DNA of 47,547 nucleotides from Candidatus Micrarchaeaceae archaeon (GTDB lineage Archaea; Micrarchaeota; Micrarchaeia; Micrarchaeales; Micrarchaeaceae): the NCBI GenBank assembly GCA_027310535.1, contig DAIDAQ010000007.1, forward strand, positions 1 through 47,547, read 5' to 3'. Made by a program: the position numbers and the translations under genes. Positions 15,965 through 47,241 of this stretch are shown here, piece after piece. Position 1 is the stretch's first letter; every line of letters starts with the position of its first letter. The notes beneath the pieces are model-generated. The model made no database searches. It saw only the letters and a program-made list of their open reading frames with translations, and had not been told where the DNA came from.

Positions 15965-15970
15965 TTGTGC

Positions 15971-17777: not shown

Positions 17778-17779
17778 AC

Positions 17780-18790: not shown

Positions 18791-18965
18791 AGTCACAAAG
18801 GAAGAGGCGAAGAAGGAAAGCAAGGAAAAGATTCCACTCCCTCTGCCCTCCGTGCTCTGATCCTAGAATGCCGGTTTATTCCGCTTTTTTGGAAAATCAG
18901 GAAGATATTTAATTCTTTTCTGCACATTAGATAGAAATTGCCGCCCTTTCTCTTCAGGTGAAGCA

Positions 18966-19190: not shown

Positions 19191-19229
19191 CTTATAAATC
19201 TGCGCAACCGCGCATGGCTTAGTGATAAT

Positions 19230-20717: not shown

Positions 20718-20721
20718 CGGT

Positions 20722-22551: not shown

Positions 22552-25500
22552 GTGATGAGATGCAGGCCGAGATGATAGACCACATAAGGTTCACGGCGAT
22601 ATCGCCCGAGACCATAAAGAAGATGAGCGTCGCGAAGATCGTCGTCGCCGACACGTGCAACGACGATGGCTACCCTATAGACGGCGCACTGCTCGACCAG
22701 CGGATGGGCGTGATAGACCCCGGGCTGAAATGTAAGACCTGCGGCGGAAGGCCGAAGACCTGCCCAGGCCACTTCGGGCATATCGAGCTCGTCAGGCCCG
22801 TGATGCACCCTGAGTTTGCAAAGGGAGTATACCTATTGCTCAGCGCTACGTGCGAGAGCTGCCACCGCATCCTTCTCAACGAGAAGCAGATAGAGGAGCT
22901 CAAGCCCGATATAGAGCGCATAGTCTCTGAGGAGGAATCAGAGACTACAACCGAAGCGCAGGGCAAGAGCCTCAACACGATCAAGAGGTTGAAGACGGTG
23001 AAGAAGTGCCCGCACTGCAATGCAGTGCAGCACAAGCTGAAGTTCGAGCGCCCAACCTTCTTCTATATGGAGGGCAACAAGATGAAGCCGGACGAGATAC
23101 GCGACTGGATGTCCAAGATATCAAACGAAGACTTGGCGCTCCTGAGAATCGACGGTACTGCAACGAGGCCGGAGTGGTTCGTCGTCACGACCCTGCTGGT
23201 GCCCCCGGTGAACATTCGCCCGTCAATAACCCTGGAGTCCGGGGAGCGAAGTGAGGACGACCTCACGCACAAGCTTCTTGACATAATAAGGACGAACCAG
23301 AGGCTCGAGCAGGACATAGACGCAGGCGCGCCGCAGATAATCATCGACGACCTTTGGGAGCTGCTGCAGTATCAAGTAACTACATACTTCAACAACGAGA
23401 CACCGGGTGTGCCTGTCGCAAGGCACAGGTCCACGAGGCCGCTCAAGACCCTCGCACAGAGGCTGAAAGGCAAGGAAGGGAGGGTGAGGTACAACCTCTC
23501 AGGGAAGAGGGTCAACTTCTCGGCGAGGACGGTCATAACGCCTGACAACAACATAGACCTGAACGAGATCGGGGTGCCGAGAAGGATAGCGGAGAACCTT
23601 TCAGTGCCGTTCTATGTAACAAAATGGAACTTCGAGCCCGCAAAGCAGTTCCTGGCAAATACCTCGTATCCCCTTGTTACTAATCATATAAGCAAGGGTG
23701 GGATAAGGAAAAGGGTCACCGAGACGAACCGCGCGGAGCTGCTCGCTGCGCTGCAGCCAGGTGACATCCTCGAACGCCAGCTTGTCGACGGGGACATAGT
23801 TCTCTTCAACAGGCAGCCCACGCTGCATAGGGTCTCGATGATGGCGCACAGGGTGAGAGTGCTCGACGGCAAGACGTTCAGGATGCACCTCAGCGCATGC
23901 ATACCGTACAATGCAGACTTCGACGGGGACGAGATGAATCTTCACGTGCCGCAGACGATAGAAGCGCAGGCAGAGGCTGCATACCTGATGTCCGTGCAGA
24001 AGCTCCTTATATCCGCAAGGGACGGGATGCCGATCATGTTCTGCGAGGAGGACACGATTTCAGGACTCTACATGCTCACGAAGGACGGTGCATTCTTCAC
24101 AAAGGACGAGGCCGCGAGGATGCTCGCGTCTGTCGGAATTTTCGAGCTGCCGAAACCTACGAGGAGCGGTTATCTAGGCAGGGCGATATTCTCCATGATA
24201 CTGCCTGATGGCCTGAACCTTGAGGCAATGGTAAAGGGCAACAAGGTCGTCATAAAGAACGGCCAGCTCACTGAGGGGTACATAGGCTCCGGGTTTGTAG
24301 ACGGCAGGGGGCTGCTGCTGCTTGAGATATTCGACAAGTATGGATATGACGCAGCGCAGAGGTTCATCAACAACGCGACAAAGCTCTCGATGCGCTCCGT
24401 CTATATGTCAGGGGTGACGATCAGCCTGAAGGATTACTACAATACAGACGAGATGAAGAAGAGCAAGGAGAGAGTGATAGCAGAGGTCAAGGCGAACGTT
24501 GGCGCCATACTGAAGCGCTACAGGGGCAAGGCCATCGAGCCTCTGCCCGGTTACACGAGGAAGCAGACCTACGAGCTCGAAACGTTCACAACCCTCAATG
24601 TCGCAAGGGATATGGTTGACAAGGCACTGCGCGGCCAGCTGAGTATGCAGAACAACGCGATGCTTATGACTGCGATAAAATCACGAGGGACATCGCTTAA
24701 CCTCGTGCAGACGAGCATGTTCCTGGGCCAGCAGTCGGTTAGGGGAGAAAGGCCGTCGAGGGGCTACACAAGGAGAGTGCTCCCGTACTTCAGGAAGAAC
24801 GACCCTGACCCGCAGGCTCACGGGTTTGTTAAGTCGAGCTTCCTCAACGGGCTCGATTTCCTCGACTACTACATGCACGCAATGGGGGCAAGGGATTCCG
24901 CGGTAGGAAAGCCGCTCATGACCGCAGACAGCGGCTACCTGCAGCGCAGGCTCATCAACGCGATGCAGGATTTCTATGTCGAAAAGGACCTCTCAGTGAG
25001 GGACGCTAGCGGCGCGGTAGTGCAGACAATCTACGGGGGTGACGGGATTGACCCGATAAACGACTCCTTCGCAAACGGGAGGCGCGGTGATGAGCACCTC
25101 GTCGTGCCAGGAGAGGCCGTCGGAACGGTCGCGGCCCAGAGCCTCGGCGAACCGAGCACCCAGATGCTGCTTAAGACCTTCCACCAGGCTGGGGTCATAT
25201 CCACGATGACAGTGAGGGGGTTGCCAAGGATAAAGGAGCTCGTCGACGCCAGAAAAGTGCCCAAGATGCCGCTCATAGAGATACAGCTTGAAAAGGGTGC
25301 ATCGAAGAGCATAGAGAAGGCAAGTGCCATAAAGAAAAAGCTCGAAGAAGTAAAGGTGAGAAGGATGCTCTCCTCGTTTGATGAGGATTTCAAGAGTGAG
25401 ACGATGAAGCTCACGCTGAGCAGGGAGAGGCTTTCGCTCTACGAGCTTACAGAGCACGACGTGCTTAACAAACTGTCAAAGCACGAGGGGGTAAAGGTAA

Positions 25501-26132
25501 GCCTCTCGGACCACGTGATAAAGATAGAGCTCAGGAAGTCAAAGGAGGGTGCGAGGAGCGTAAAGGATGTGCGCATCAGGTTCGTCCACATAAGGAATCT
25601 TGCCATAAAGGGCGTGAAGGGCATCAGCAAGGTGAACATCGAGCAGGACAGCGACGGCGCATTCTACCTCATGGCACTGGGCAGCAACATCGAAGGCATA
25701 TTGGAGGTGCCCGGGGTAGACAGGGAGCGCGTTTACAGCAACAACCCGTTCGAGGTTGCGAGGGTCTTCGGCATAGAGGCCGCGAGGACGCTGGTGATGC
25801 GCGAGTTGCATGCCACGATCCGTGATGCCGACATCACGGTGAGCATGCGTCATATAGGTCTGATCGCCGACGCGATGACTTTCACGGGCGCGATCAAGAG
25901 CATCGGAAGGCACGGGATCGTAGGTGGCAAGAACTCGGTCTTTGCCCGCGCCGCCTACGAGGAGACCGTAAAGCACTTCACCAACGCATGCATATTCGCG
26001 GAGAAGGATGCACTCTCAGGCGTTGCGGAAAACATACTGATAGGCAAGCAGATAAATGTGGGGACTGGTTCTGTAAGGCTCGGGATAAAGAAGGAGTCGC
26101 TGAAGCTGTTGCAGCATGCGGATAGTGAGTAA
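22548..26132 (+). CDS. rpoA: RNA polymerase subunit A, unsplit (A' and A'' equivalents in one 1,194-aa ORF)
   Basis: One ORF holds the N-terminal Zn motif CKTCGGRPKTCPGHFGH, the catalytic NADFDGDEMNLH, the bridge helix DSGYLQRRLINAMQD and the A''-type trigger-loop region PGEAVGTVAAQSLGEPSTQMLLKTFHQAGV. The GTG start overlaps the rpoB1 stop (GTGA). Confidence 0.9.
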   Translation: MSDEMQAEMIDHIRFTAISPETIKKMSVAKIVVADTCNDDGYPIDGALLDQRMGVIDPGLKCKTCGGRPKTCPGHFGHIELVRPVMHPEFAKGVYLLLSATCESCHRILLNEKQIEELKPDIERIVSEEESETTTEAQGKSLNTIKRLKTVKKCPHCNAVQHKLKFERPTFFYMEGNKMKPDEIRDWMSKISNEDLALLRIDGTATRPEWFVVTTLLVPPVNIRPSITLESGERSEDDLTHKLLDIIRTNQRLEQDIDAGAPQIIIDDLWELLQYQVTTYFNNETPGVPVARHRSTRPLKTLAQRLKGKEGRVRYNLSGKRVNFSARTVITPDNNIDLNEIGVPRRIAENLSVPFYVTKWNFEPAKQFLANTSYPLVTNHISKGGIRKRVTETNRAELLAALQPGDILERQLVDGDIVLFNRQPTLHRVSMMAHRVRVLDGKTFRMHLSACIPYNADFDGDEMNLHVPQTIEAQAEAAYLMSVQKLLISARDGMPIMFCEEDTISGLYMLTKDGAFFTKDEAARMLASVGIFELPKPTRSGYLGRAIFSMILPDGLNLEAMVKGNKVVIKNGQLTEGYIGSGFVDGRGLLLLEIFDKYGYDAAQRFINNATKLSMRSVYMSGVTISLKDYYNTDEMKKSKERVIAEVKANVGAILKRYRGKAIEPLPGYTRKQTYELETFTTLNVARDMVDKALRGQLSMQNNAMLMTAIKSRGTSLNLVQTSMFLGQQSVRGERPSRGYTRRVLPYFRKNDPDPQAHGFVKSSFLNGLDFLDYYMHAMGARDSAVGKPLMTADSGYLQRRLINAMQDFYVEKDLSVRDASGAVVQTIYGGDGIDPINDSFANGRRGDEHLVVPGEAVGTVAAQSLGEPSTQMLLKTFHQAGVISTMTVRGLPRIKELVDARKVPKMPLIEIQLEKGASKSIEKASAIKKKLEEVKVRRMLSSFDEDFKSETMKLTLSRERLSLYELTEHDVLNKLSKHEGVKVSLSDHVIKIELRKSKEGARSVKDVRIRFVHIRNLAIKGVKGISKVNIEQDSDGAFYLMALGSNIEGILEVPGVDRERVYSNNPFEVARVFGIEAARTLVMRELHATIRDADITVSMRHIGLIADAMTFTGAIKSIGRHGIVGGKNSVFARAAYEETVKHFTNACIFAEKDALSGVAENILIGKQINVGTGSVRLGIKKESLKLLQHADSE

Positions 26133-32734: not shown

Positions 32735-33004
32735 ATGTTCCATTGTGATAGCTTGCCGATATACGAAGACCCGAAGGACGTGAAACCAAAGAGCCTGGAC
32801 CTGGAGAGGGCGAGGCAGTCGTTGATCGAGGAGCTGCAGGCGATAGACTGGTACCAGGAGAGGATAGACGCGACGAAGAGTGCATCTCTGAAGAGAATAC
32901 TCGAGCACAACCGTGACGAGGAGAAGGAGCACGCCGCGATGCTTCTGGAATGGGTCAAGGCAAACGATCCCGTGCAGGCAAAGAAGTTCGTCGAGCACGA
33001 CTGA
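32735..33004 (+). CDS. EncFtn-type (encapsulated-ferritin family) ferritin-like protein, stand-alone
   Basis: LIEELQAIDWYQERIDA...LEHNRDEEKEHAAMLLEW matches the EncFtn signature (LIEELEAVDWYQQR...HN..EE.EHA.M.LEW). ATG at 32735 verified. Confidence 0.7.
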   Translation: MFHCDSLPIYEDPKDVKPKSLDLERARQSLIEELQAIDWYQERIDATKSASLKRILEHNRDEEKEHAAMLLEWVKANDPVQAKKFVEHD

Positions 33005-33675: not shown

Positions 33676-33686
33676 CCTTATAAAAC
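33676..33686 (+). promoter_or_regulatory. TATA box (CCTTATAAAAC) about 30 nt upstream of the giant ORF's ATG
   Basis: Read directly. The spacing suggests a leaderless or very short-leader mRNA. Confidence 0.45.
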
Positions 33687-33711: not shown

Positions 33712-36700
33712 ATGAAGCAGATTAACGCCGGTGCCTTGGTTGTTGCAACTTTGCTCCTGACAATAATGCTAGGTGCAACTGCTTCGCAATCGCCCCCAAT
33801 CTTGGACAAGAGCGGCAGCGGCCTGAACAGCAACGGCAATTCTGCGCGGGCTACAGCGTGCGTTTCTGTCAACCTGTCGTTCCTCAAAAATATCCCAGGC
33901 TGGGTGACAAGCCTCATCAAGGGCCTGTCGCTAGACCCAAGCGCGTTATTCAAAAAGCTTAGTGATGAGGTAAGCAAGCTGACATCTGATGTATGGGGCG
34001 ACATTACTAAGGTGGCAAATAAGATAGCCAGCGGCGCAGCTGATGTCATAAAAGTAATAAATGATCTGATAAGCGGCAACATCTCGGACGAAATGAGCAC
34101 GATCATCGATGACTTGGTGGGCTATCTCTCTGATGCAGTGCAAGCGGCATTCAGCAAGCTTATCTCGAGCCTCCCTGGCTTGCTCAACAAACTTGCAGAC
34201 AGCATTTTCTCTCTGATTGACAATGCCATCCAGAGCATGGCAAATCTCGTCAATGAATTGTCGGTGCCTTCTATCCCATCTTCGCTCTTTTCAAGCATAC
34301 AGAGCTCGTTCCTCAGCGCTCTGCAAGACCTTGGCAGTTTCTTCGATACAATAATCAGTGATATCTCAAGCTTCATATCCAACATCGACATCAGCATACC
34401 GGGCCTGTTCGGCTCGTCAAACACGGTCGCTGCCTCGTCCAACGGCATCGCAGTGGCTGCCAATTTGATCCTTGATGGGATAAAGAAATCATGCAAGACA
34501 ATCCCGCCTGCCATATTCAACCAGTTCATAAAGGACACAAATAACCTTGCAAATGATGGCAGCGCAACTTACAGATACGCGAACGACATAGTCGTCAGAA
34601 TCTCTAATATAAGGAAAGACTCTGCCGCAATAGTAAATATGGTGGACAATGTCGGGAACGTGATAGGGCCTGGTAATGTCATAGGGGAAGAGACACTCGG
34701 CATAAGCAAGTCAGGCTTCAACGAGAATGCCTATGTGGGTTACGCCAACAAGGGCAGCGGAATACTCAATGGTATATATCTTTCAGCAAAGCAGTCGCAG
34801 ACCGGCAGTCTCTGCGTGGGGTTAGGCATAACCTCAAGCTACATTGATGCTATCGCGGCCAAAGTCAACGACATAAACGCGCAGGTAGGCGCGATAGATG
34901 CGGACGTGCAGGCGCTTATCGGCGCCAATGGCATGGGGTATAAGTTCGATGCAGACATTCAGGCATATTCAAAGGACCTCGCGCTAGCCCCGATAAAAAG
35001 CTGCGCTGTGATAAAAAACCCCACGGCGGACTTGGTGGCGGCCGTCGCCGCGGTAACATATCTAGGCACCAGGGAGCCGCAGGTAAAGGATGCGCTCAAT
35101 TCCATGGGTAAATTTAACGACAAGCTTAAAGCTGACTACAATAAAATGTCCAAGGACATCTCTAAGGTAACCAAGATAGCGGCAAACCCGCTCTCCCTCG
35201 TCAAACAGCTAAATAACCTCAACCCTCTCGGCGGTGTAACTGTCAACCCACAGGACATAAACGCGATAAAATCAGGATACGAGCTGGCAATGAGGCCCAC
35301 GAACGACCTGATTAACATAGCACTTGGCAATCTGACAAAGGTAGACAACATAATGGCAAACGTGGTCAAATTTAACGGCCGCGTGCAGGCCGCCTCCGCC
35401 AACGTGATCAAGGTGCTTGGCAAGATAGACAAGAATGTGATTTCGGAGATAGGTTCAACCGCGTCGCCGACCTTCTGCAGCGCCGTCTCCAATGCAGCGG
35501 ACAAGGGGGAGGCTTACTGCAATGCGATCCGCAGCGCCGCCTATATCACCGGAAACATAGATACTGAACTGGCTTTCATAACGCAGAATGTTGCCGATAT
35601 ACCAAATTCCGTAGCCATGTTGAGGTACAGCGTCTACGCCCTCCAGGGGAGCCTCTTGTCGACCCGCGCAAACATAATAAGGGTGGATTCAGACCTTAGT
35701 AATATAGCCTCTGTGCTGAGCCAGAACGGCGGGAAGCTAACGTGCAGTGTCCAGGCAAAGATAGGGGGTAACCTGGCTGACATTGGCACAGGCCTGCAGA
35801 GCGTGGTGCAGGATGCGGAGAATGTGTATACTGCGACAGAGGGCACGATTGCCCTGATAGAGCTGTCAGCTGAGAGCATAAAGACCGACATCGTCATGAT
35901 AATAGAGACGATCAAAATCATAATAGCCGACATTAAGGCAATAGCCCTTGTATTCTACTACGCCTCGCAGGGCGTCGGGTCTTCTGCAACCCCTCTGCCG
36001 AAGTTCGGCGCCTGCATTGGCGTGGGTGCAACCGTGGTCACTACGAACTATCCGAATGCGGGCAACGGGTGTGTAATAAGCCTATCGGCAGTTTACGATG
36101 CCCAGACAAACCAGGTTGCGATACAGGCCGACCTGATCGTGGTCCTCCAAAGACTCTTTGATCCAAGCCAGATATCCTCGCAGCTAAAGACAAACGTACA
36201 GGACGCAGTTGCAGCGGATCTTACAAGCGCGATAAAGGTGCAGGCAACAGTAGACATCGGCAAAAACGTGCAGGTGGGTGTTGGCGCAGCGCTGCAGGGC
36301 GCCTTCACCGAGAGCGCATGGAGCGGCATGTGGAGCAACATCTATTCTGCGTCGAAGGCCGGGGTAAACTCTGCCTTAAACGCAGGGATAAACCAGCAGA
36401 CGTGGACTGCCTATGCGAGCGGCACTGACACAGGGGCGGAAGCGATAGTACAGGGTGCAATACTCTCAGCTATCCAGGCTGGCGTGCAAGCAAGCATCGA
36501 CGCACAGGTAAGCGGCTCTTTAAGCGGCGGCATAGTAGCAGGGATCAAAAGCCAGATAGCCCCGGGAATACAGAACGCATACAGCACCGGAGAGTCAGCG
36601 AGCATAAAAGAGAGTGTCAAGGCAGGCATTTGGGGGGCAATACAAGAGGACGTGAAGGCCGCAGTAAAAAGCGCCCTGGACTCAGGGTTCGGCACGCAGG

Positions 36701-39700
36701 TCGTACAGACAGAGCTCGCGCAGAACGTATACAACAACATATACTCTTCGCTCCAGAACGATATCAGGAACGGCATACAAGACACGATACAGGTAAGGAT
36801 CCAGGCGCAGATACAGACTGACATAGTCGAAAGCACGTGGGAGAGCATAAGGACGCAGGTGATGACGGCCGTGCAGAGCGCGCTTTCGCAAGGCCTTCCT
36901 GCCACCCTCTGGAACAGCATCTGGACCAACATAGGGGCAAGCATACCGGGAGATGTCAACGCGATATACGCGAGCGTCTGGCAGAACGTGATCTACGGCA
37001 CCGGCGATGTGGAGGACCGGATAGGCTTCGGAGTCCTCTCCGCGCTTCAGACTACGGTCAGGCAGAACTTCTACAGCTCTATAGAGGCAGGGATAGTCGC
37101 GTCCTCCGAGTCCGCCCTCTCGCAGAGCATCGACTCTGCGATCTACGCTATCATAAAGAATGGCGTGCAGGGCGGCATACAGGCGCAGCTTACAGTGAGC
37201 TTTAGCAACAACCTGTGGGCAGGCCTCAAGGGCAGTGTGGCAGAAGCGGTGCGGACAACAATCGAGAAGGATTTTGCAACAAACTTTGCAACCGCAATAA
37301 AGAAGGTCGCAAAGAACTGCCTGCTCAGCACTGGTATCAGCGTGCTATCAGGCAAACTGGCCGGCGCTCCCTCAACAACTACCCGGCCCTATCCATTGCT
37401 GACTCTGCCACCAAAGCCAGCCCCAGACAACTATACGATAAGCTCTTCTCTCCCAAGGAAGATTAACGCAACCTCCCCCGCTTTCGCCCCGTTAAGGCTG
37501 GCGAGCATCGGAGGGCTCGTAGGGCAGTATGGCGGTGCGGCCCTCTCTGCCATAAAGAACATGGTCGCAACCGCGACGCCGCCCATCTCAGTCATACAGC
37601 AGTACAATCAGCAAAACTCAGGCACTTTGCTGACATGCCCGAATAAGCCCTCGGCCAATCCCTTTGACTATTTCCAGAGCTCGCCCAATTCAAAGATTGC
37701 AGGAGATGCCTGTCTGGCAACATCACAGCAGTTGAGGACCATTGTCGGGATAACCGTCACGTCAACGTTTGGCACCGGGCTCAGGATAGGCGGGCAGGAG
37801 ACCTTCCTCTCTGATTTGGCCCAGCTCGTCAAGGAGGGCCTTACGGCAGATGTCACGCTCGCGCGTACCACCCCGGCTACCATATCCAGCGTGCGTTTCA
37901 CAATAGGCCTTGACCTGTCATCGCTGGGTGTTTTAGTGGGCAAGCTGAAGATAAACATACCACAGGGCGCCATCCAGAATATAGAGAATACACTGATGGC
38001 AGGGCCCGCTGCCATTGTGTCAATACAAAACCTCGGCTACTCTGGGATGGTGCAGATAGGCAGCACTGGCGATTACGAGATCTCAAGTTCGTACAATACA
38101 AACACGCTCATCTTCCAGACACCTCCGCCGGCAGTGCAGCGCGGCCTGTGGACATGGACGGCACAATACGCTGATTTGAGCCAAGTGAAGCCGAACCAGA
38201 TCACAGCAGCGACTTCAGGCCCTCAGCGTGCAAGCCTGATAGAGCTAAAAGGGGCGACGAACCTGGTCAAAGACGCGCTATCGATAGTGACAGGCGGGGC
38301 TGTCCCGCCTAGCTATGGCCTTTACTTCTGCTCGTACGATTACGACTATTCATGGAAGGTTTCAGTCGACTCAATCGACGCTGGCAACATACCGATACCG
38401 ACCTCGATAAGCTGGCAGAACGGGGGCAACCTGGACATAGCAAGGGACTTTAACGATGCTTATGCCGTCCAGTACAGGCAGCCGCAGATAACCGGATGGG
38501 CGGCTGCGCCGGTCTTCCCGTATCTTTTGTACAATGTGACGCTTCCTGCCTCATACAGCAACCTCAACAGCCAGATAAACTACCTCAATGAGTCATATGA
38601 TATTTACAGCCCGCACAACTTTCTGGAGCCTAACGCGTTCCTTGAGCCAGTCCCGATAACAGCGGGCTCTGCATTCCTCGCCAATATAGGAGGGGTACTC
38701 GAGGAGTTCCCATACAACTCTGTCTCGCTCTCTGCGACCAGCACAAACACGTTCAATAGCGTGGTGCCGCTGCAGATGTTCATCGCCTCCGCGTACGGCA
38801 AGACAGCCGCAGAGGCCATGCAGAACTACCCTGCTATAACTGGTGGCAGCATTGCGCAGCCAAGCGGAGGTGCCGACTGCATCAACAACGGGGCTGCATT
38901 TGGGCCCTACTACTACAAAGACCTATTTAACCCACGTGTGGTGAACTGCCGCACGAAGGTTGACCCGGTCAGCTTAACCGCCCAAACCAGCGGCGGAAGC
39001 CCGGGAGCCGAGTGCTATTTTTATGAATATACGGGCGGCTTCTTTAAATTTAACTTTGGGCGCCCTTATGTGTATTACTGCAAGTTTCCGCTGCCATACT
39101 CAAATAATTTGGGCGGCGGGACAGGTTCCGGCCCTGGCGGGATCTGTACATATGCTGATGTAGTCACAGGTGCTTGCACCAGGGGTGCGGTACAGACAGG
39201 GAATCTTATAAGCGTGCCAATAACAAATCCGGTTTACGTTTACGCTGCGCCCAACGGCTATGTCTATGTATTGAATTACAGCTACAGCGGCGGCACCCTT
39301 GGCTTCAACCCAACGACGAAGGCAAACTTGTATGTTTTGAAGTTTGCCCCATTCGGGTCATTCAACATCCCCGGGCGCCTTCCCCAGGCCATAATTGCCG
39401 GTACGAAGCCTATAACCGACCTTACTATATCAGGCAGAAAACAGCTTGATTTCAACCAGATCGGTACAACGTTTAATGCACGGTGGAGCGGCGGGACAGC
39501 CCCGTTTGAGATAAAGTGGTATACTGGAACTAACCCGGATTGTACGAGCCCTACAGGCCAGAAGACGCTCGTCCAGGATGATACCGGCATCGGCATCAAC
39601 GAGGACTTATTAAAGGTCTTCGTGCCTAACACGCAATGGACCTCTGTGGGCACATATTATTACTGCGTAGCTGTGGCAGACTCTTTTGGCTCAACCCTCC

Positions 39701-42700
39701 AGGCGGTTGGGGTGGAAATAACAGTAAATCCGTCGCTTACCGCAGTTGCAGCCTATATGCCGAACCGGCAGCAGATCGACGCAAACACACAGCCAGATAT
39801 AACGAGCCAGATGGGGGCAGGTAATGCAGTGATAATAGGCAACGACCAGTCCCCGAGCGTCAGGGTTACATGGTCCGGCGGCACCCCCCCGTACACCGGA
39901 ACAGTGTATGTTCTACCGATGGGCCTGGAGGGGAACAGCGATCTGAGCGTCCTATTAACCCGCCGTGCATTGCGCACAGTTCCGTTCAACCTCCGTGGGA
40001 ATTGCAACAACTACCAGAGTCCAAATTACGGTTGGTATTCCACATCATCGACAGGCTTTGAGGGCGATCTGAATTCAGGTCGCATCCCAGCGGTGCAACG
40101 CATGTTTGGCGAGCCTTCAGGCGATATTGCTTTCCTGTGCTTTGTCGTATCAGACAGCGCAGGCTGGTCTAACGCCTCAGTGCTTAAGGACAGCTCTTCA
40201 GGTTTCTGGGAACCGTATCTTGTGCTTGACATTATAGGCAAGAAAAAACCCAATGAAGAAATTCCTGAAGCCCCGGTATTCGAGGCCATCTGCCCGAAGC
40301 AAAGCCCGGGAGCATGCACGGCATACCCCTCCACCACAATTACCTCCTATAACCTTCTGGCGTCTCTGCAAAGCGGAAACAGTGTTCTGTTGAGCGTAAA
40401 GAATGCCGCCGGTCCCTCTGTGAAATATGGATGGTACAAGACTGGCAGCCCAATAAACGACTGCAGCGGTTACAAGTCGTTTGCGCAGCTCGCTGTCAGC
40501 GACCCGGCAACCACACAATCGACCACGGATGCGCCTAGCGCTACTGCCTACTACTGTGCAGTTTCCACGAATTCGATTTCAGGAGCTATAGGGGTGTCGC
40601 TTCCGGGTGAGGTCTATGTTAATGGGGTGATAAGCGATGTAAGGCTCAGCAATGCACCTGCATGGGGAACGACCCAGACCTACGACCAGCTAATCAACAA
40701 CCCAGAAGCCTACTTTAAGGTTGATTGGCTCGGCGCGAGCGTCGCCGACGGTGCAGAGATAATCGCGTATAACAGCGTCTCGCAGGGGCAGACGTGCACC
40801 GGAACTGTCGTCCCAGTGGTCAATGAAAAGGAGAACCCAACGGAAGGCAGCCAATCCGCGCAATCCTTCGGCCTGCCTTCCGGACTGCCAAATCTGGGTG
40901 CGTCATCCGAACTTATAGAGCTGCCCGGCGCAGGCTTGCAGAACCTGTGCGTCACTGTAACAGATCCAAAAGGCAGCTCGGCCTCATCGCCTTATCTCAG
41001 CGTCGCATCCAGCCTTGGCGGCCTTCAAATCTCTGTGCCGCCAGGCCAATCGGTCTCGAGCGAAGGTAACATAGACGTGCAGCTGTCATGGACCGGCGGA
41101 ACGCAGCCATTTTCATACAAGGTATACTCAACTTACAATGGCATCTCCCCTGAAGTATGCGATACAAACTCCGACAACGCCGAGCAGATAACGATACAGT
41201 CGCAAGGGGCCCTGAGCTCCTCAGGCGGTGGCTACACCGAAACGCTTTCGATACCTTATGTTGACAGCCAGCCTGTTTGCGCAGAAGTCGATGGCACTGG
41301 TGCCGGTATAGTATCACAGTATACGGCTTTGCCGGCAGGGCTCTCTGTCTCTCAAACGACAACCTCCACCACTACCTCCTCTACAGTTACCACTGTTCCA
41401 ACAGTGAGGCCGAGGGGACTGCCGATACCCCCAGGCATCGCAGCCGGGCAGGCCCAGCAGGAGGCGTCTGCCTCCAGTGCAAGGAATGCAACTCTGGCGC
41501 CACTCCAGTTTGCTGCGAGCCAAGCGCAACAGCAGGTGATAGACCAGTGGAACAGCAACTGGAAGCAATACTGGAGCGACAAGCTTGCAGAGCAGTCTGG
41601 CGACCTCTATCTCGTTGGGGACATAACGCTCGCCCAGCAGTCAAGCAGCTTCTTTGGGCTTTTCTCGAACTTCAAGCAGGGAATGTTCAACTTCCTTCCA
41701 ACCTCCCTGACCACTGACCTGTCCGGGGACCTATTTATCCTGGGGAAGGCGCAGTCAGGTGCCATAGTCTCCGGCATACTGTACTCAAATGGAGTGGCAA
41801 CGACATTGCCAATCCAGGTGCCGAACACGCGGATCATAGCACCGAGCAGCGAGTTTGCCGTCTCGCCAGGCGGGCAGATCGGCTATATGGCAGACCCTGT
41901 CGTCCCGGGCAATGTGATGATGTTCAACATGCAGAATGGCAGGTTCACCGGCAATATTAGCCTCTCCTACTCCAACGAGAACTACAACCTGGATATTGCG
42001 CGGTACCTTTCAAATGGCGGTCCATACGGAATAAATGATGTTTCAGCCGCGTATTCAGGGGCGGCCACGGCAAACGATGTCAATGCGAACCACGAGCCGC
42101 TATATATAACCGAATACGGCGGCGTCCTGTATGTTGTAGACCGCTGGTCGTTCGATGCCGGCAAAGGCCCCTCGGCGATGTTGCTGCTGCGTGCATTCTA
42201 CGGGAACGGCACAGAGGTGCAGATAGACCCTGCCTCGTCCAATGACATAGCGTTTGCGCCCTCGGCTGGCCCCGCTGCCCCCCTAGCTGCGCCATCGGGC
42301 AGGCTTGCGTACCCGCCATACGGGTGGCCGCTGGCATTCAACATATCGTTGGGCAACGGTCAGTACAATACGGGCTGCATAGCTGGATGCGACGAGACCC
42401 CGGTGGTATTAAAAGGCGGCATATACACAAACACAAACTATAAGCCTCTGGGCCCATGGATACAGGCTAGCTATGCATGCAACCTCTTAGGGAGTATTGG
42501 CACTTTCCTGGAGTCCGCGTTGGACACCGTGCTCGGCATCTATGCGGGCAATGCATGTGGCTATAATAATGTGAATACCGCGATGAGTTTCTCGTCGGCA
42601 TTTGACGGGACGGGATACATAACGGCAAATGTCGTCTCGCACCAGCTCAGCGGGCAGGTTGACGGCTCGTACAACGAGCTGCTGTCGTTCAAGCTCAGTG

Positions 42701-45540
42701 TGCTGAACTACACAAACCCTTCCGGGCTGGCAGATGCGGGCTTTGCCTGCTATCTGGCCCCGCGCAGTACTGGCACAGACATAGACAGCTTCTACAGCAA
42801 GCTTCAACAATTAAACGGCCCATGCACGATTGCCAGGCCATTGAGCCCTGCATGGCAGGCCATCACCGCAATGGAAAGCCCGGTGCTAGGCGTGCCTGAT
42901 GCCATAGGGTACGTGGAGAGCCAGGGCTCGCCGCAGCTCGACCTTACCCTGCCTAGCGCTGGCTCGTCTGTGGCCATCGCCGCCAACCAGAACTTCCAGC
43001 AGAACACCCAGAGCGCGGAAAACCTCCTGAGCCAGGGTTCACTGCCCGAATCTGCCCCTGCCGCACAAGCGCCGTCGGTGCCGCAGGAATACATAGAGAG
43101 CAAGGTTGGAGGATCTGTGCTTGTGCCTTACGTAATCACATACACAGAAACGCAGACAGCGATCGTAACCAACAGAGGGTTTACCAAGACCCCGATCTGG
43201 TCCAGCGACCTCGATTCGGTGGTGGACCTAAGCTCATGCAAGGCTACGTCCTACATATCGCAGGCCACCTGCGACAACGGTTGCACCTTCACTCAATACG
43301 CTTATTCGACCGCTGCCGCCTCGCCGAGCACGTTCAATGCAGTCATCGAGGGAGGGCCAACCTACCTTGTCTACAACAACACCAACTTCAACCAGTTCTA
43401 CCAGCCCGACATATCTGACTCGCGTGCAATACTGCCCCCCTCCATTGACTACAAGGTGCTGACGAACAGGCTCTTCGGCGAGATATATGTAAACCAAAGC
43501 ATAATGCCAAACCCGCTCGCAAAGCTCGACTCTGCCAAGATAACCGATGTGCAGGACCTGGTGAGCAAGCTTTCATCCCTTGTTTCCCCCGGTATACAGC
43601 TTCCAATAATGCTTTCGCTCAACCAGACCCACCTGTATGACTACCTGCCCGTGTTCTATTACCAGGTCTATCCGAACGGCGGCGCGAGCAGCTCCTATGG
43701 CCTTGCCGTGCCGGCCTACGTATCAGTGATTGCCATCCTACGTCAGTACACCGGCTTCTCGTCAGGCTTTGTGCAGTCTGTAGCGCAGAAAGGGGCCCAG
43801 CAGGCCGTAACGGATCTGGCAACCAGCTACCAGGGCCCGGCCTCATTCCTGAAGGCCGCAGCAGAGGCGGCGCCGTTCTACTACAGTCTGGCTTACATCG
43901 TCGGCGACGCGTCGCTCTCCGGCGCTTATCCTGGCGCTTCGTCAAACGCAGCCATGGTTGCAGGCTACACGCTGCTTGGGCTGCTGCCGCAGACCCTGTG
44001 GTGCAAAGGCAGCCAGCCTGGCGGTATGGCAGCAGCCCTTGTTAAGCTGGGCAGCGGCGACTTGTACACGCTTCTTTCAAAGCTTTCAGGCACAGACCCG
44101 TTTGCCATCTGCAACAACCAGCTTTCGTACTACGATAACACAATTCCAGGCACCCCTTCTTTGCTGCAGCTCTATGATACATACAGGCAGGAGAGCCGCA
44201 ACTATGCGCTCAGGCTGGGCTGGCGCAACAGCAACGCCGCCCTGGGCTATAACAGGCTGCTCTACACTTTTGTTGACATATTCAACAACACGATAACAGC
44301 CCCGCTGGATGTCGACCTCGCGAACCAGACAATAATATCGCTCACCACAAATACAGACGTTTTGGAGAACAACCCAAACGAGACGACAGTTACGGTAAGC
44401 GGCGTCGCAGGCTATTACCAGGACAGCATCGGCGGGGCGTTCATGCCGCTCCCCTCAGGCTCTCCGATATACCTCTACTATGACCAGAACCTGAATTACT
44501 ACACAAGCAACACCGAGATGAGCCCGATCGCGCTGATGGGTGTTAGCGGCATAACCTCCTTGCAGGACTCGCCGTACGGCAAATACATAGACTACGTCCA
44601 GCTCTGCGCCTTCGGCAAAGGCAGCGACTGCAGGCTCGCCAACCCGGTCAACGGCACCCAGGCCGTCCAAACCCTCCAAAAAGGCATAGCAGGCCCGCTC
44701 AACACGTACGCCTCCATACCAACATATCAGTCTCCCGCGGCAGTGAATGGCTGCCCGGCACCATCGCAAGGATTGCTCAACACCAACTCAATAAACGCGC
44801 TTTATGAGTGCAACATCTATGGCTCGTATGGCCTTCCTGCCACCTGCGCCCAAGTGCTGAAATTAGGCGCGCCTCCGCTGAGCGAGCTCCAGAAATGTGC
44901 GCAGACCGCGGCAACAGACGTCCTGCACCGCCAGACCCCGCAGTGCGCGCTTGCGAATGATTACTCGATATGCTTCAACGCTTACACCAACCCACAGAAC
45001 ATCGGGTCGCTCGGCCAGTTGCCATACTGCGTGCCTGTCTTCGCAAACGGCACAGGCACATTCACGCCGCAGATCGGGCTCCTGCCAAGCTCTGACAAGG
45101 GAGCCTCCATACAGACCATAGGGGACCTGATCACAAAGGGCGGCACCGCCCTGACTGACAGCAACGGCAACTTCAACTACCAGTTCAGCGTCTGCGGAAC
45201 CGGGACCGGGAAGATTACAGCATCCTACTACGGGGCCCCGTTCCCGCAGCCGGCAAACGTGCTGCAGTCATCTCTTCCCCTATCAAACATACCGAACGCA
45301 GGGCTGCAGAGCTCGCAGCAGCAGAACTACGGCGAGTACTGGTTTTCGTATTCGCCGGCAAATGCAACTACGTCATTCGTGGTCGGGAGCTATGCGCTAA
45401 GCTTCGGTGCGACAGACGCGCTGCTAGTGCTTGCCGCAATCGGCGCTACCGCAGCTGTCCTCGTGCTCCGCAGAGGCTCTAAGAGGGTGGGCAAGAGGAA
45501 GCCTGCGGTAAGGAGGCGTAGTACGGTTCTGCATAGATAG
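33712..45540 (+). CDS. Giant (3,942 aa) secreted, C-terminally membrane-anchored surface protein of unknown family
   Basis: Uninterrupted 11.8-kb ORF. Signal-like N-terminus MKQINAGALVVATLLLTIMLGATASQ and a C-terminal TM helix LLVLAAIGATAAVLVL with basic tail RRGSKRVGKRKPAVRRRSTVLHR. Internal repeat modules, a Thr-rich linker and many N-x-S/T sequons. Confidence 0.85.
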   Translation: MKQINAGALVVATLLLTIMLGATASQSPPILDKSGSGLNSNGNSARATACVSVNLSFLKNIPGWVTSLIKGLSLDPSALFKKLSDEVSKLTSDVWGDITKVANKIASGAADVIKVINDLISGNISDEMSTIIDDLVGYLSDAVQAAFSKLISSLPGLLNKLADSIFSLIDNAIQSMANLVNELSVPSIPSSLFSSIQSSFLSALQDLGSFFDTIISDISSFISNIDISIPGLFGSSNTVAASSNGIAVAANLILDGIKKSCKTIPPAIFNQFIKDTNNLANDGSATYRYANDIVVRISNIRKDSAAIVNMVDNVGNVIGPGNVIGEETLGISKSGFNENAYVGYANKGSGILNGIYLSAKQSQTGSLCVGLGITSSYIDAIAAKVNDINAQVGAIDADVQALIGANGMGYKFDADIQAYSKDLALAPIKSCAVIKNPTADLVAAVAAVTYLGTREPQVKDALNSMGKFNDKLKADYNKMSKDISKVTKIAANPLSLVKQLNNLNPLGGVTVNPQDINAIKSGYELAMRPTNDLINIALGNLTKVDNIMANVVKFNGRVQAASANVIKVLGKIDKNVISEIGSTASPTFCSAVSNAADKGEAYCNAIRSAAYITGNIDTELAFITQNVADIPNSVAMLRYSVYALQGSLLSTRANIIRVDSDLSNIASVLSQNGGKLTCSVQAKIGGNLADIGTGLQSVVQDAENVYTATEGTIALIELSAESIKTDIVMIIETIKIIIADIKAIALVFYYASQGVGSSATPLPKFGACIGVGATVVTTNYPNAGNGCVISLSAVYDAQTNQVAIQADLIVVLQRLFDPSQISSQLKTNVQDAVAADLTSAIKVQATVDIGKNVQVGVGAALQGAFTESAWSGMWSNIYSASKAGVNSALNAGINQQTWTAYASGTDTGAEAIVQGAILSAIQAGVQASIDAQVSGSLSGGIVAGIKSQIAPGIQNAYSTGESASIKESVKAGIWGAIQEDVKAAVKSALDSGFGTQVVQTELAQNVYNNIYSSLQNDIRNGIQDTIQVRIQAQIQTDIVESTWESIRTQVMTAVQSALSQGLPATLWNSIWTNIGASIPGDVNAIYASVWQNVIYGTGDVEDRIGFGVLSALQTTVRQNFYSSIEAGIVASSESALSQSIDSAIYAIIKNGVQGGIQAQLTVSFSNNLWAGLKGSVAEAVRTTIEKDFATNFATAIKKVAKNCLLSTGISVLSGKLAGAPSTTTRPYPLLTLPPKPAPDNYTISSSLPRKINATSPAFAPLRLASIGGLVGQYGGAALSAIKNMVATATPPISVIQQYNQQNSGTLLTCPNKPSANPFDYFQSSPNSKIAGDACLATSQQLRTIVGITVTSTFGTGLRIGGQETFLSDLAQLVKEGLTADVTLARTTPATISSVRFTIGLDLSSLGVLVGKLKINIPQGAIQNIENTLMAGPAAIVSIQNLGYSGMVQIGSTGDYEISSSYNTNTLIFQTPPPAVQRGLWTWTAQYADLSQVKPNQITAATSGPQRASLIELKGATNLVKDALSIVTGGAVPPSYGLYFCSYDYDYSWKVSVDSIDAGNIPIPTSISWQNGGNLDIARDFNDAYAVQYRQPQITGWAAAPVFPYLLYNVTLPASYSNLNSQINYLNESYDIYSPHNFLEPNAFLEPVPITAGSAFLANIGGVLEEFPYNSVSLSATSTNTFNSVVPLQMFIASAYGKTAAEAMQNYPAITGGSIAQPSGGADCINNGAAFGPYYYKDLFNPRVVNCRTKVDPVSLTAQTSGGSPGAECYFYEYTGGFFKFNFGRPYVYYCKFPLPYSNNLGGGTGSGPGGICTYADVVTGACTRGAVQTGNLISVPITNPVYVYAAPNGYVYVLNYSYSGGTLGFNPTTKANLYVLKFAPFGSFNIPGRLPQAIIAGTKPITDLTISGRKQLDFNQIGTTFNARWSGGTAPFEIKWYTGTNPDCTSPTGQKTLVQDDTGIGINEDLLKVFVPNTQWTSVGTYYYCVAVADSFGSTLQAVGVEITVNPSLTAVAAYMPNRQQIDANTQPDITSQMGAGNAVIIGNDQSPSVRVTWSGGTPPYTGTVYVLPMGLEGNSDLSVLLTRRALRTVPFNLRGNCNNYQSPNYGWYSTSSTGFEGDLNSGRIPAVQRMFGEPSGDIAFLCFVVSDSAGWSNASVLKDSSSGFWEPYLVLDIIGKKKPNEEIPEAPVFEAICPKQSPGACTAYPSTTITSYNLLASLQSGNSVLLSVKNAAGPSVKYGWYKTGSPINDCSGYKSFAQLAVSDPATTQSTTDAPSATAYYCAVSTNSISGAIGVSLPGEVYVNGVISDVRLSNAPAWGTTQTYDQLINNPEAYFKVDWLGASVADGAEIIAYNSVSQGQTCTGTVVPVVNEKENPTEGSQSAQSFGLPSGLPNLGASSELIELPGAGLQNLCVTVTDPKGSSASSPYLSVASSLGGLQISVPPGQSVSSEGNIDVQLSWTGGTQPFSYKVYSTYNGISPEVCDTNSDNAEQITIQSQGALSSSGGGYTETLSIPYVDSQPVCAEVDGTGAGIVSQYTALPAGLSVSQTTTSTTTSSTVTTVPTVRPRGLPIPPGIAAGQAQQEASASSARNATLAPLQFAASQAQQQVIDQWNSNWKQYWSDKLAEQSGDLYLVGDITLAQQSSSFFGLFSNFKQGMFNFLPTSLTTDLSGDLFILGKAQSGAIVSGILYSNGVATTLPIQVPNTRIIAPSSEFAVSPGGQIGYMADPVVPGNVMMFNMQNGRFTGNISLSYSNENYNLDIARYLSNGGPYGINDVSAAYSGAATANDVNANHEPLYITEYGGVLYVVDRWSFDAGKGPSAMLLLRAFYGNGTEVQIDPASSNDIAFAPSAGPAAPLAAPSGRLAYPPYGWPLAFNISLGNGQYNTGCIAGCDETPVVLKGGIYTNTNYKPLGPWIQASYACNLLGSIGTFLESALDTVLGIYAGNACGYNNVNTAMSFSSAFDGTGYITANVVSHQLSGQVDGSYNELLSFKLSVLNYTNPSGLADAGFACYLAPRSTGTDIDSFYSKLQQLNGPCTIARPLSPAWQAITAMESPVLGVPDAIGYVESQGSPQLDLTLPSAGSSVAIAANQNFQQNTQSAENLLSQGSLPESAPAAQAPSVPQEYIESKVGGSVLVPYVITYTETQTAIVTNRGFTKTPIWSSDLDSVVDLSSCKATSYISQATCDNGCTFTQYAYSTAAASPSTFNAVIEGGPTYLVYNNTNFNQFYQPDISDSRAILPPSIDYKVLTNRLFGEIYVNQSIMPNPLAKLDSAKITDVQDLVSKLSSLVSPGIQLPIMLSLNQTHLYDYLPVFYYQVYPNGGASSSYGLAVPAYVSVIAILRQYTGFSSGFVQSVAQKGAQQAVTDLATSYQGPASFLKAAAEAAPFYYSLAYIVGDASLSGAYPGASSNAAMVAGYTLLGLLPQTLWCKGSQPGGMAAALVKLGSGDLYTLLSKLSGTDPFAICNNQLSYYDNTIPGTPSLLQLYDTYRQESRNYALRLGWRNSNAALGYNRLLYTFVDIFNNTITAPLDVDLANQTIISLTTNTDVLENNPNETTVTVSGVAGYYQDSIGGAFMPLPSGSPIYLYYDQNLNYYTSNTEMSPIALMGVSGITSLQDSPYGKYIDYVQLCAFGKGSDCRLANPVNGTQAVQTLQKGIAGPLNTYASIPTYQSPAAVNGCPAPSQGLLNTNSINALYECNIYGSYGLPATCAQVLKLGAPPLSELQKCAQTAATDVLHRQTPQCALANDYSICFNAYTNPQNIGSLGQLPYCVPVFANGTGTFTPQIGLLPSSDKGASIQTIGDLITKGGTALTDSNGNFNYQFSVCGTGTGKITASYYGAPFPQPANVLQSSLPLSNIPNAGLQSSQQQNYGEYWFSYSPANATTSFVVGSYALSFGATDALLVLAAIGATAAVLVLRRGSKRVGKRKPAVRRRSTVLHR

Positions 45541-45586: not shown

Positions 45587-45727
45587 ATGCTGTTGCTTTT
45601 CGTGCTGCTGAGCTTCAATGCAATCTACACTCTGATACCCATCATCGTCATCGTGATCCTCATAGCAGCTGCGGCAGGGCTGATGCGCGGCATGAACGTT
45701 TTAGCTTCTTCGGGTTCGGGACCGTGA
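45587..45727 (+). CDS. Small hydrophobic ORF (46 aa); possibly the frameshifted N-terminus of the next gene
   Basis: Hand translation: MLLLFVLLSFNAIYTLIPIIVIVILIAAAAGLMRGMNVLASSGSGP. Its TGA overlaps the GTG of the next ORF (GTGA). The next ORF's frame is open upstream back through FSFFGFGT. Confidence 0.35.
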   Translation: MLLLFVLLSFNAIYTLIPIIVIVILIAAAAGLMRGMNVLASSGSGP

Positions 45728-47241
45728 TCGGCCTCGCAAGGGGAACTACATCGGGTAAGGCGAAAGGCCTATCTGGCGGAGCCCATGTCGGCAAGACCGC
45801 AGGTGCAAGGTTCCAGAGGCAGACATTGCGAAGGGGTAAGGAGCTGTTCAAGGGCCGGAAGAGCGGACTTAAGGCAATATTCAGCGTCGTAGGCATCGGT
45901 GCCACAGGGGCGCTCGGTTCAGCAATTGCGCATTCGGGCGCCGCTACCGCGGCTACAGGCCTGTTCGGCGCAACGGCCACAAAAAACGCAGTGCCGCTCG
46001 AATCTTCGCTCTCTGCTAAGGAACGCGAGCGAAAGTTCGGCAGGATGAGGCAGATCCAAAGGAGGCTGGGCGAGCTTGAGGAAGCGGAAAAGAGCCAAAA
46101 GGACGTGGCAAAACTGGAAAAGATGGGGGTAAGGGGCTACAAGGCAAGCCAGCCAGTATCCGGGGTAGGCAGCATTGTCAAATTTTCCTTTTCGAATATG
46201 GCATTCTACCGCCGCGACAAGAGCGGAATATATAGGTTCATGCCCATCCTTGGTCCAATACCATTTATCGGCAAGTACTTCAAAGCAGGGAGGGAGGCCG
46301 TGCTTTCTGAGAAGGACAAGCTTCTAAAAGAGCGCGATAAGCTGCGCAATGAGCTCAACAAGGCCAGCGGTGCGGCGCAGAACAGGACAATTTACCTCAA
46401 AGCTGTTGCCGAGAAGGCAGGTATAAAGAGGAAAGACTTCGCCAAGGAGATCAAAAAGCCAGGAATGGAGAAGGCGCTAGAAGCCTATGATAAGTACGGA
46501 AGCGCCGCTGCCGCTTTCAGATATCTACCATCGGCACTAAAAGAAGGCCTGAGCGCGGCAAGGAATGAGTACCTGGAGGAGCGCGCCAGGCGCGAAGCAA
46601 GGAGGGCAGCAGCCATTCCCCCCGTGCGGCATCCCGTGCCGCTGCCCCTGCAGTATCCCGTGCCGCATCCCGTGCGGCATCCCATGCCGCATACCAGGCA
46701 GCATCCCGTGCCGCATCCCGTGCAGCATCCCATGCCGCATACCAGGCAGCATCCCATGCCGCATACCAGGCAGCATCCCATGCCGCATACCAGGCAGCAT
46801 CCCGTGCGGCATCCCGTGCCGCTGCCCCTGCAGCATCCCATGCCGCATCCCGTGCCGCTGTCCTCCGAGGAACAATCTAGCACACTCACAGAGAAAGAGG
46901 GCAGGCTGCTGAAGGGGGTCATGGACGCCTACCTAGCGAAGCAGGGTGCGGAAGCTAACTATGCCGAGCGCAAGGCAGAGCCGCGGCATTTTATACGGAT
47001 GTGGGAGGCCCACTACAGCGTAAAGGCCGCGCGGGCAGGGTACAAGGAGCAGTTCAAGTATGCAAACAGTGTTTTGAAGTACTCCCACGATCCAGAGCTG
47101 AGAGGCACGGTCGTCGATTTTGAGACAGGCCCGAAACTCCTGCACAAGCGCCAGGAGAGACCTGGTGGCAGGTTCAGCCGCATGGTCGACGGGATAAGGC
47201 TTAATTTCATAGAACAGGCTCACAAGAAGAAGAAAGGGTGA
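45724..47241 (+). CDS. Uncharacterised 505-aa protein: Gly/Ala-rich hydrophobic N-terminal part, Lys/Glu/Arg-rich probable coiled-coil middle, His/Pro tandem repeats, basic C-terminal domain
   Basis: Long ORF directly downstream of the giant gene on the same strand. No family recognised. Confidence 0.6.
   Translation: MIGLARGTTSGKAKGLSGGAHVGKTAGARFQRQTLRRGKELFKGRKSGLKAIFSVVGIGATGALGSAIAHSGAATAATGLFGATATKNAVPLESSLSAKERERKFGRMRQIQRRLGELEEAEKSQKDVAKLEKMGVRGYKASQPVSGVGSIVKFSFSNMAFYRRDKSGIYRFMPILGPIPFIGKYFKAGREAVLSEKDKLLKERDKLRNELNKASGAAQNRTIYLKAVAEKAGIKRKDFAKEIKKPGMEKALEAYDKYGSAAAAFRYLPSALKEGLSAARNEYLEERARREARRAAAIPPVRHPVPLPLQYPVPHPVRHPMPHTRQHPVPHPVQHPMPHTRQHPMPHTRQHPMPHTRQHPVRHPVPLPLQHPMPHPVPLSSEEQSSTLTEKEGRLLKGVMDAYLAKQGAEANYAERKAEPRHFIRMWEAHYSVKAARAGYKEQFKYANSVLKYSHDPELRGTVVDFETGPKLLHKRQERPGGRFSRMVDGIRLNFIEQAHKKKKG
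46621..46860 (+). repeat. In-frame 12/24-nt minisatellite encoding H-P-[VM]-[PR] / HPMPHTRQ repeats
   Basis: The 24-nt unit CATCCCATGCCGCATACCAGGCAG occurs at 46678-46701 and three times in perfect tandem at 46726-46797. Identical 33-nt flanks CCCGTGCGGCATCCCGTGCCGCTGCCCCTGCAG lie at 46621-46653 and 46801-46833. Confidence 0.9.

Follow-up and report, generated by a model that had tools for sequence, protein, structure and literature searches.

A predicted 3,942-residue surface protein of a micrarchaeon, enlarged member of an unnamed family found across the phylum

SprB- and RTX-type giant adhesins of bacteria and the SPEARE proteins of Nanohaloarchaeota are very large, carry repeated immunoglobulin (Ig)-like modules, and have fast-evolving distal parts, and in DPANN archaea such giant proteins have been proposed to mediate host interaction. 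SlaB of Sulfolobales and the tetrabrachion of Staphylothermus form stalks, and each has a coiled coil and is anchored in the membrane at its C-terminus. Large surface proteins of the beta-propeller/Ig type are known in archaea and have been remarked on in Mia14 (PMC5498576). Cultivated Micrarchaeota are host-dependent (PMC8975820, PMC8784108, PMC5498576), and attachment to hosts has been seen for them (PMC8975820, PMC5498576); the molecules they use for host contact are unknown. Here, we describe a gene from a 47,547-nt stretch of DNA of a Candidatus Micrarchaeaceae archaeon (assembly GCA_027310535.1, contig DAIDAQ010000007.1, positions 1 to 47,547 of the forward strand), referred to below as the window, whose 3,942-aa product, the giant, points to a phylum-wide, unannotated two-gene surface module.

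The giant would be a Sec-exported, C-terminally anchored type I surface protein, probably N-glycosylated in its core, and an enlarged member of a phylum-wide family. As far as we have found, this family, its partner gene, the history of fusion and insertion behind the giant, and the helical extension with its tetrad repeats are undescribed. We are moderately inclined to regard the giant as a long surface spike that contacts the host cell or the matrix of a biofilm.

A protein family of Micrarchaeota and its downstream partner

A search with aa 2501-3942 of the giant retrieved eight proteins of 1,600-2,200 aa, which align with it from aa ~1290 to the C-terminus at 28-36% identity (alignment A1). 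The family is defined from alignments A1, A6, and A7. A scan of one genome per species (GTDB species representatives) returned 98 relatives; 79 loci were kept, nearly all labelled Micrarchaeota. Two complete genomes, those of Ca. Micrarchaeum sp. A_DKE and of ARM-1, are among them and encode the following homologues:

~NZ_CP060530.1:400579-406608: family member of A_DKE, with its partner gene at ~406641-408011
AP024486.1, complement 17483-23374: family member of ARM-1

Lengths of the 63 complete open reading frames (ORFs) run from 728 to 4,050 aa around a median of 2,004 aa, and the window protein, about twice the median, is the second largest member. All of the ordered core motifs are present and aligned, from WL(I/L)TCP..GDxCLA, YLNxSYDxYSPHN, PNDY(I/V)YV, SPGGQ, and HxP..LYVxDxW to PPYGWPL, NYT, GYNRLxYTxVDxFNNTI..DVDxAN, NGTGxxTxQxGL, CGTG, and YYGxPxPxP. 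A survey of related genomes for orthologues and their synteny, suggested along with the original prediction for this DNA, yielded two that are syntenic with a pyruvoyl arginine decarboxylase (PvlArgDC) gene: the orthologue at locus L005 (4,050 aa) has the same divergent PvlArgDC neighbour as the giant and shares both additions described below, and at locus L006 the gene is split in two with the PvlArgDC synteny kept.

The original prediction found no recognisable family and could map no zone of the protein to one. The first point stands for Pfam and NCBIfam, whose scans of the giant gave no family match, but two thirds of the protein belong to a well-populated, unnamed family, and the second point falls, as aa ~1290-3942 align end to end with family proteins of 1,300-4,050 aa. 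Across 23 diverse members, Pfam detected no shared family, only sporadic accessory modules, with single members carrying SLT_3, Spherulin4, Flg_new_2, or SBBP (the last at 1e-4 in one member). The distal add-ons of P0008/L082, P0003/L018, P0006, and others comprise lysozyme-like SLT_3, Gly-rich beta-helix-like N-termini, Spherulin4, and InlB B-repeats; the family scaffold is apparently tolerant of diverse passenger modules. Several members (L011, L015, L024, L035, L070, L017, and L080) lie on contigs labelled Marsarchaeota, Methanothrix, or 'bacterium', and the termini of some of them (e.g., L015) are nearly identical to Micrarchaeota entries (e.g., L021); members on non-Micrarchaeota contigs are likely to reflect mis-binning or mislabelling. 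Mia14 has large proteins that were noted as 'surface layer', and some of these possibly belong to the family (PMC5498576).

Divergence along the protein is uneven. Between the giant and the L005 orthologue, identity rises from 24-36% in the N-terminal extension through 41% in the core to 52% in the C-terminal domain, and the neighbouring RpoA and PvlArgDC are 78% and 85% identical, respectively. The pattern is one of a conserved base and fast-changing distal parts, in a protein that evolves much faster than its neighbours (25-41% vs 78-86% identity).

The second gene of the module lies immediately downstream:

45587-47241, plus strand: partner gene, with an N-terminal transmembrane (TM) motif (LLSFNAIYTLIPIIVIVILIAAAAGLMRG.N.FSFFGFG), then a basic, coiled-coil-like region

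The downstream ORFs of 42 loci form one BLAST cluster. A hidden Markov model (HMM) built from the N-terminal ~60 aa of these clustered ORFs and searched against 87 sequences matches 63 of them, in each case on the strand of the family gene, and a match was scored immediately downstream for 45 of 65 complete family ORFs. The conserved motif, LSFNAIYaLIPII..AAAGLtRGtDiFalFGiG, is followed by a basic, poorly conserved region, and Pfam and NCBIfam scans of the partner gave no match. In the window, the motif starts at 45587 (HMM E 2.5e-18). The window sequence lacks one C after 45702 (GTTTT, 45698-45702) in comparison with both Logan assemblies of this region (runs SRR5161805 and SRR5161795), and the reading frame is intact in the two independent assemblies L084 and L085; the frameshift results in a 45-aa stub and an ORF at 45724-47241, and the missing C is either an assembly error or a rare variant. 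BLAST of the downstream 505-aa ORF against the neighbour of a homologue appeared negative, as the 1-nt frameshift separates this ORF from the conserved N-terminal motif upstream. Natural single-ORF fusions of a family ectodomain with the TM motif and basic region of the partner occur in L019 (3932-9601) and L051 (1-2718); they link the giant-family protein with its partner and place the basic region of the latter in the cytoplasm.

The anchor of the family (LSFG, TM helix, RRG) loosely resembles the N-terminus of the partner (LSFN, TM helix, RG). When scored with the HMM, the best 32 sequences are all real and lie above every shuffled sequence, at 13 bits or less and with shuffling a weak control for TM segments, and the similarity is only suggestive. 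A tandem repeat with periods of 12, 24, and 48 nt at 46621-46858 of the window, within the partner gene, encodes His/Pro-rich repeats of the HP(M/V)PH type.

Architecture of the giant

The gene and the parts of its product are as follows, all on the plus strand of the window:

33678-33685, plus: TATA-like box TTATAAAA, ~30 nt 5' of the ATG, read from the sequence; putative promoter element
33712-45540, plus: surface-protein gene, 3,942 aa, 414 kDa, predicted ectodomain pI 4.7
33712-33783, plus: signal-peptide-like N-terminus by hydropathy, aa 1-24, ending in ...GATA and followed by SQ
33784-37581, plus: lineage-specific N-terminal extension, aa 25-1290, predicted almost all alpha-helical
36232-37281, plus: tetrad-repeat zone, aa ~841-1190, with a large hydrophobic residue at each 4th position
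37582-39351, plus: family core part 1, aa 1291-1880 (alignments A1 and A8)
39352-41529, plus: insertion, aa ~1881-2606, ~700 aa, from the gap pattern in family alignment A1
41530-44238, plus: family core part 2, aa 2607-3509 (alignment A1)
44239-45408, plus: Cys-rich membrane-proximal domain, aa 3510-3899, the most conserved part, ending in LSFG
45409-45537, plus: C-terminal TM helix (aa 3900-3919) and 23-aa basic tail with 11 K/R

Much of the original outline is borne out by this layout. The predicted single ORF filling about a quarter of the window is indeed uninterrupted, with 3,942 stop-free codons and 24.9% of the window; the four zones along the protein exist; the gene has its own TATA-like box, within an 87-nt divergent spacer common to the giant and PvlArgDC genes; and the view of the gene as native agrees with the divergent PvlArgDC neighbour, which is syntenic in two related genomes. 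Three 3,942-aa versions are present in the protein database, from the window contig and the two Logan assemblies, with 4-5 residue changes between them, and at the DNA level one Logan version differs from the window at 8 of 11,829 nt. Given that an ORF of the same length occurs in two independent assemblies, the giant ORF is real, and a chimeric or collapsed assembly is very unlikely. A search for DNA tandem repeats inside the ORF found none.

Only three stretches exceed the hydropathy criterion (Kyte-Doolittle, 19-aa window, threshold 1.8), namely the N-terminus, an internal, amphipathic, and charge-bearing stretch at aa 727-748, and the C-terminal helix at ~aa 3899-3922. The orthologue P0010 has a similar N-terminus, followed, as in the giant, by a D(K/R)SGS motif, and the same layout of C-terminal TM helix and basic tail is found in 71 of the 76 family members with a complete 3' end. 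These signals bear out the signal-like N-terminus and the C-terminal TM helix proposed before, fit a mostly extracellular chain, and support the topology of a type I surface protein, presumably Sec-exported and C-terminally anchored; the tail is as strongly basic as had been described, but is 23 rather than 24 aa long. An invariant L-x-x-G (LSFG in the giant; window 45391-45417, aa 3894-3902) directly precedes the TM helix in 22 of 22 aligned members. In its layout of LSFG, TM helix, and basic tail, this end recalls the tripartite sorting signals of the sortase type, but a PGF motif is lacking: a test for PGF-CTERM/archaeosortase found no PGF before the C-terminal TM helix, where LSFG stands with its L and G invariant.

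The shared part of the protein begins with a conserved N-terminal core domain (LLTCP...GDACLA, YLNESYDIYSPHNF), which makes up core part 1 together with a Cys-rich local insert and the first propeller-like blade (aa 1839-1857). The other predicted blades of the beta-propeller (SPGGQ, HEPLYI..LYVVDRW, PPYGWPLAFNISL) are in core part 2, which also contains middle domains. The membrane-proximal domain, with the motifs GYNRLLYTFVDIFNNTI..PLDVDLAN, NGTGTFTPQIGL, CGTG, and YYGAPFPQP, is 50-52% identical to those of L005 and L006 and has 34 invariant columns among 22 sequences (alignment A7). Against the PDB, the family profile gave weak matches to propeller proteins (E 0.2-0.4). Among PDB sequences, no query, whether the profile of the whole family, the C-terminal or N-terminal core domain, the Ig modules, or the N-terminal extension, gave a match below E ~0.03, and no PDB relatives by sequence were found for the N-terminal core domain or the Cys-rich C-terminal domain. 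Structure prediction, suggested originally together with Foldseek, gave low-confidence models. For the last 1,200 aa of homologue P0004, the AlphaFold2 model has a mean pLDDT of 38, reaching 50-72 over the propeller blades only; with this low-confidence model, Foldseek matched beta-propellers only (E 1e-4 to 3e-3, TM-scores <=0.39), among them 1l0q, the YVTN propeller of an archaeal surface-layer protein (E 3e-3).

The first of the two additions is the N-terminal extension, modelled by AlphaFold2 as all helices at a mean pLDDT of 35. Its aa 31-800 have a hydrophobic periodicity of 3.5-3.75 by fast Fourier transform (FFT), and in the tetrad zone, which has runs of at least 18 tetrads (IQAG VQAS IDAQ VSGS ...), FFT power is 15-25 at a period of exactly 4.0. 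The first 1,200 aa had been called almost Cys-free; they contain 9 Cys, 5 of which are conserved in the orthologue. Homologues of the extension comprise P0010/L005 and a separate upstream ORF of L006 (L006a), and the tetrad zone is kept in the former and absent from the latter. Among 1.84 billion representative proteins, none was found beyond these relatives, apart from repeat-driven matches to the tetrad zone: a word-indexed search gave no match, and exhaustive phmmer recovered the extension itself, the L005 orthologue, and such repeat-driven matches only. The latter are to unrelated proteins with a 4-residue period: SVWDSVRASV-type proteins, an FtsX-like permease, and an Ig protein of eukaryotic origin that has IQTEIRPG repeats. 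L006 encodes the N-terminal part as a separate secreted protein of 1,478 aa (5315-9751), 48 nt upstream of the gene for a 2,530-aa core protein (9800-17392), and each of the two has its own hydrophobic N-terminus. Because this part is a separate adjacent gene in L006, the first ~1,290 aa are a fused module, or one that was split off in L006, which is evidence for gene fusion or fission in the lineage.

The second addition, the insertion, is present only in L005 and partly in L006, at a site where shorter homologues have a short loop after the first propeller-like blade. In it, five weak Ig-like modules that each have one Cys pair are followed by two linkers, the first Thr-rich (aa 2548-2564) and the second rich in Ala, Gln, and Pro. 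The five related modules and the Thr-rich linker of the original description are thus present, but the modules are only weakly related, with 24-37% mutual identity and no relatedness detected by self-BLAST of the giant at E<=1. Pfam on single modules gave Ig_3 at 1e-3 and SprB at 3e-6; in the scan of the whole protein, SprB reached 19.2 bits vs a cut-off of 28. In the PDB, the modules weakly matched the Ig domain from a decoration protein of a phage.

Although many N-x-S/T sequons had been noted by eye, their number is below chance, with 23 observed vs 44.1 +/- 6.0 expected and none of 2,000 shuffles as low. Depletion is mainly in the lineage-specific parts (3.9 per 1,000 aa in the extension and 2.8 in the Ig insertion), and the overall density of 5.8 per 1,000 aa is among the lowest in the family, most members having 10-40. 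In the core, 11 of the 16 sequons are at columns where at least five of eight homologues also have one, three of these columns being 8/8. Owing to this positional conservation, N-glycosylation of the conserved core is plausible, which keeps part of the earlier idea of a glycosylated protein; with sequons not enriched overall, heavy glycosylation of the whole chain is not indicated.

The other genes of the window include a split rpoB, a 1,194-aa rpoA, and PvlArgDC. The closest relatives of RpoA (78% identity), PvlArgDC (85-86%), and the giant are all in metagenome-assembled genomes of Micrarchaeota, which places the organism, by its sequence, as a micrarchaeon (DPANN). The protein had been expected to matter most in an episymbiont, and the organism fits this description, with all close relatives in Micrarchaeota genomes and the cultivated members host-dependent. 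The region at 19230-26132 contains rpoB, split into two ORFs of 495 and 609 aa, and rpoA as a single 1,194-aa ORF including Rpb1 domain 5, a form also present in L005 (1,193 aa). Archaeal RpoA is usually split into A' and A''. A small gene at 32753-33004, just upstream of the PvlArgDC gene, received an EncFtn-like (PF22277) call on the equivalent Logan contig.

Readings of the giant

In the spike reading, all family members would share a base at the membrane, composed of the Cys-rich C-terminal domain, the middle domains, and the beta-propeller, plus the conserved N-terminal core domain, whereas the membrane-distal parts, which vary greatly between lineages, would diversify quickly. The giant may have been extended distally in two ways, by fusion with a ~1,290-aa helical secreted protein that is still a separate upstream gene in one relative, and by ~700 aa of Ig-like modules inserted within a loop of the propeller. 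The resulting spike would project from the envelope, beyond the surface layer (S-layer), contact the host cell or the surrounding biofilm matrix, and probably work with the small membrane protein encoded downstream. It is conceivable, if unlikely, that the giant and its partner form a Micrarchaeota-specific host-contact apparatus, in which base and partner would make a trans-membrane link, the distal end would set host specificity, and the fused, low-charge, amphipathic helical tip of 1,200 aa, with its zone of 4-residue period, would engage the naked membrane of a wall-less host of the Thermoplasmatales type.

It should be noted that several points weigh against the spike. The contact role is drawn from how the protein is built and distributed, the speed at which it evolves, and the way of life of the phylum, and fast divergence is also expected of any virus-exposed surface protein, not being specific to adhesion. 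Both AlphaFold2 models are of low confidence (mean pLDDT 38 and 35), and no fold besides the propeller is assignable. As for the partner, its gene is frameshifted in the window assembly, and neither the ARM-1 locus nor 13 further loci that have a complete family ORF gave a match to its motif. Expression in ARM-1, described next, depends on an exact mass match rather than on protein identifiers.

Translated from its first ATG, the ARM-1 homologue comes to a calculated 210.68 kDa. Among the rows consulted in the ARM-1/AS-7 proteome table (PMC11329633, Supplementary Data 1), one has exactly this mass, with 9 peptides and 8.8% coverage; by mass match, the homologue is expressed. In this part of the table, the row is of middle abundance, and its label-free quantification (LFQ) values are ~29.3 in four M samples vs 23-25 in four S samples. 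Its intensity-based absolute quantification (iBAQ) value is ~6e8 vs ~1.4e11 for a 106-kDa protein, the most abundant among the same rows and elevated in M samples, a ratio of ~1:230.

The ratio bears on a different role for the giant, as a structural component of the envelope, that is, a membrane anchor or stalk that holds an S-layer lattice of the SLP_Mh type, as SlaB does under SlaA. The near-universal presence of the family in the phylum, its conserved C-terminal TM anchor, and its most conserved domain next to the membrane are what such a stalk would be expected to have. The S-layer protein published for A_DKE, at 101 kDa and with PF05123, is distinct from the family (bioRxiv 10.1101/2021.04.28.441871), and its anchoring is explicitly unknown (PMC8975820, Fig. 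2 legend). However, ~1:230 by iBAQ in the rows consulted is far from lattice stoichiometry and argues against such a role, though glycosylation may depress the signal, and threefold variation in length, wholly different distal parts, and accessory enzyme or adhesion modules that come and go are unlike a stalk matched to a lattice. We therefore consider a stalk improbable. That the giant is itself the published Micrarchaeota S-layer protein was rejected, the latter being the 101-kDa PF05123 protein; S_layer_N/S_layer_C (PF05123/TIGR01564) gave no match to the giant at E<=1 in Pfam or NCBIfam.

A role in ligand binding or catalysis at the surface, for example as a propeller lectin, a lactonase-like protein, or a polymer-processing enzyme that captures nutrients in the biofilm, is quite unlikely in our view. 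It is suggested by the beta-propeller being the only recognisable fold, with lactonases, strictosidine synthase, GH43, and hydrazine synthase beta as the nearest matches, and by the lysozyme-like SLT_3 or Spherulin4 modules of some members; yet none of these matches is strong (E >=0.2 by sequence; TM-scores <=0.39 by Foldseek, from a model of low confidence), no motif for catalysis was identified, and the giant has none of the enzyme modules.

Finally, practically no credence can be given to the giant ORF as an assembly artefact, a two-gene chimera, or a decaying pseudogene, already largely refuted: the separate ORFs for N-terminal part and core in L006 and the frameshift in the adjoining partner gene would fit it, but the same 3,942-aa ORF is present in three assemblies, a syntenic, fused 4,050-aa ORF exists in a different genus-level relative, there are no tandem repeats that could collapse, and 11.8 kb free of stops is not chance.

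The module would take up more than 1% of a ~1-Mb genome, a size inferred from A_DKE (0.99 Mb) and ARM-1 (0.81 Mb), and the giant illustrates a mode of growth by gene fusion and domain insertion into a propeller loop. The family occurs in two cultivated co-culture systems, A_DKE and ARM-1, where localisation and direct tests are possible. Should the contact role be wrong, the giant would still be an unusually large, uncharacterised envelope component that annotation pipelines leave blank.

Comparison with known systems

The closest counterparts of the giant are the family members of other Micrarchaeota, such as A_DKE and ARM-1, with which it shares end-to-end alignment of the core, motifs, Cys positions, sequons, the topology of signal, TM helix, and basic tail, and the downstream partner. 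It differs from them in the ~1,290-aa helical extension and the ~700-aa Ig-like insertion, which are shared only with L005 and partly with L006. SLP_Mh of Ca. Micrarchaeum harzensis A_DKE (Micr_00292; PF05123) is likewise a secreted, probably glycosylated envelope protein of the same phylum, but it is unrelated in sequence, measures 101 kDa, lacks a C-terminal TM anchor, and is the most abundant protein.

Outside the phylum, the surface-layer protein of Methanosarcina mazei (PDB 1L0Q; tandem YVTN beta-propeller, PKD) combines propeller and Ig-like modules on an archaeal surface, as the giant may do; the fold match comes from a low-confidence model. In contrast to it, the giant has no YVTN or PKD match in Pfam or NCBIfam, a different domain order, a far larger size, and a C-terminal TM anchor. 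Like the giant, SlaB and tetrabrachion have long helical segments, a Thr-rich linker, and a TM anchor at the C-terminus, but the predicted helical region of the giant (aa 31-1200) is at the distal N-terminus rather than beside the anchor, and the sequences are not similar; next to its anchor, the giant has a Cys-rich, non-helical domain and no coiled-coil stalk. SprB, RTX, and SPEARE proteins are not homologous to the giant, which has five modules in a propeller loop and a C-terminal TM anchor, and no protease or nuclease domains.

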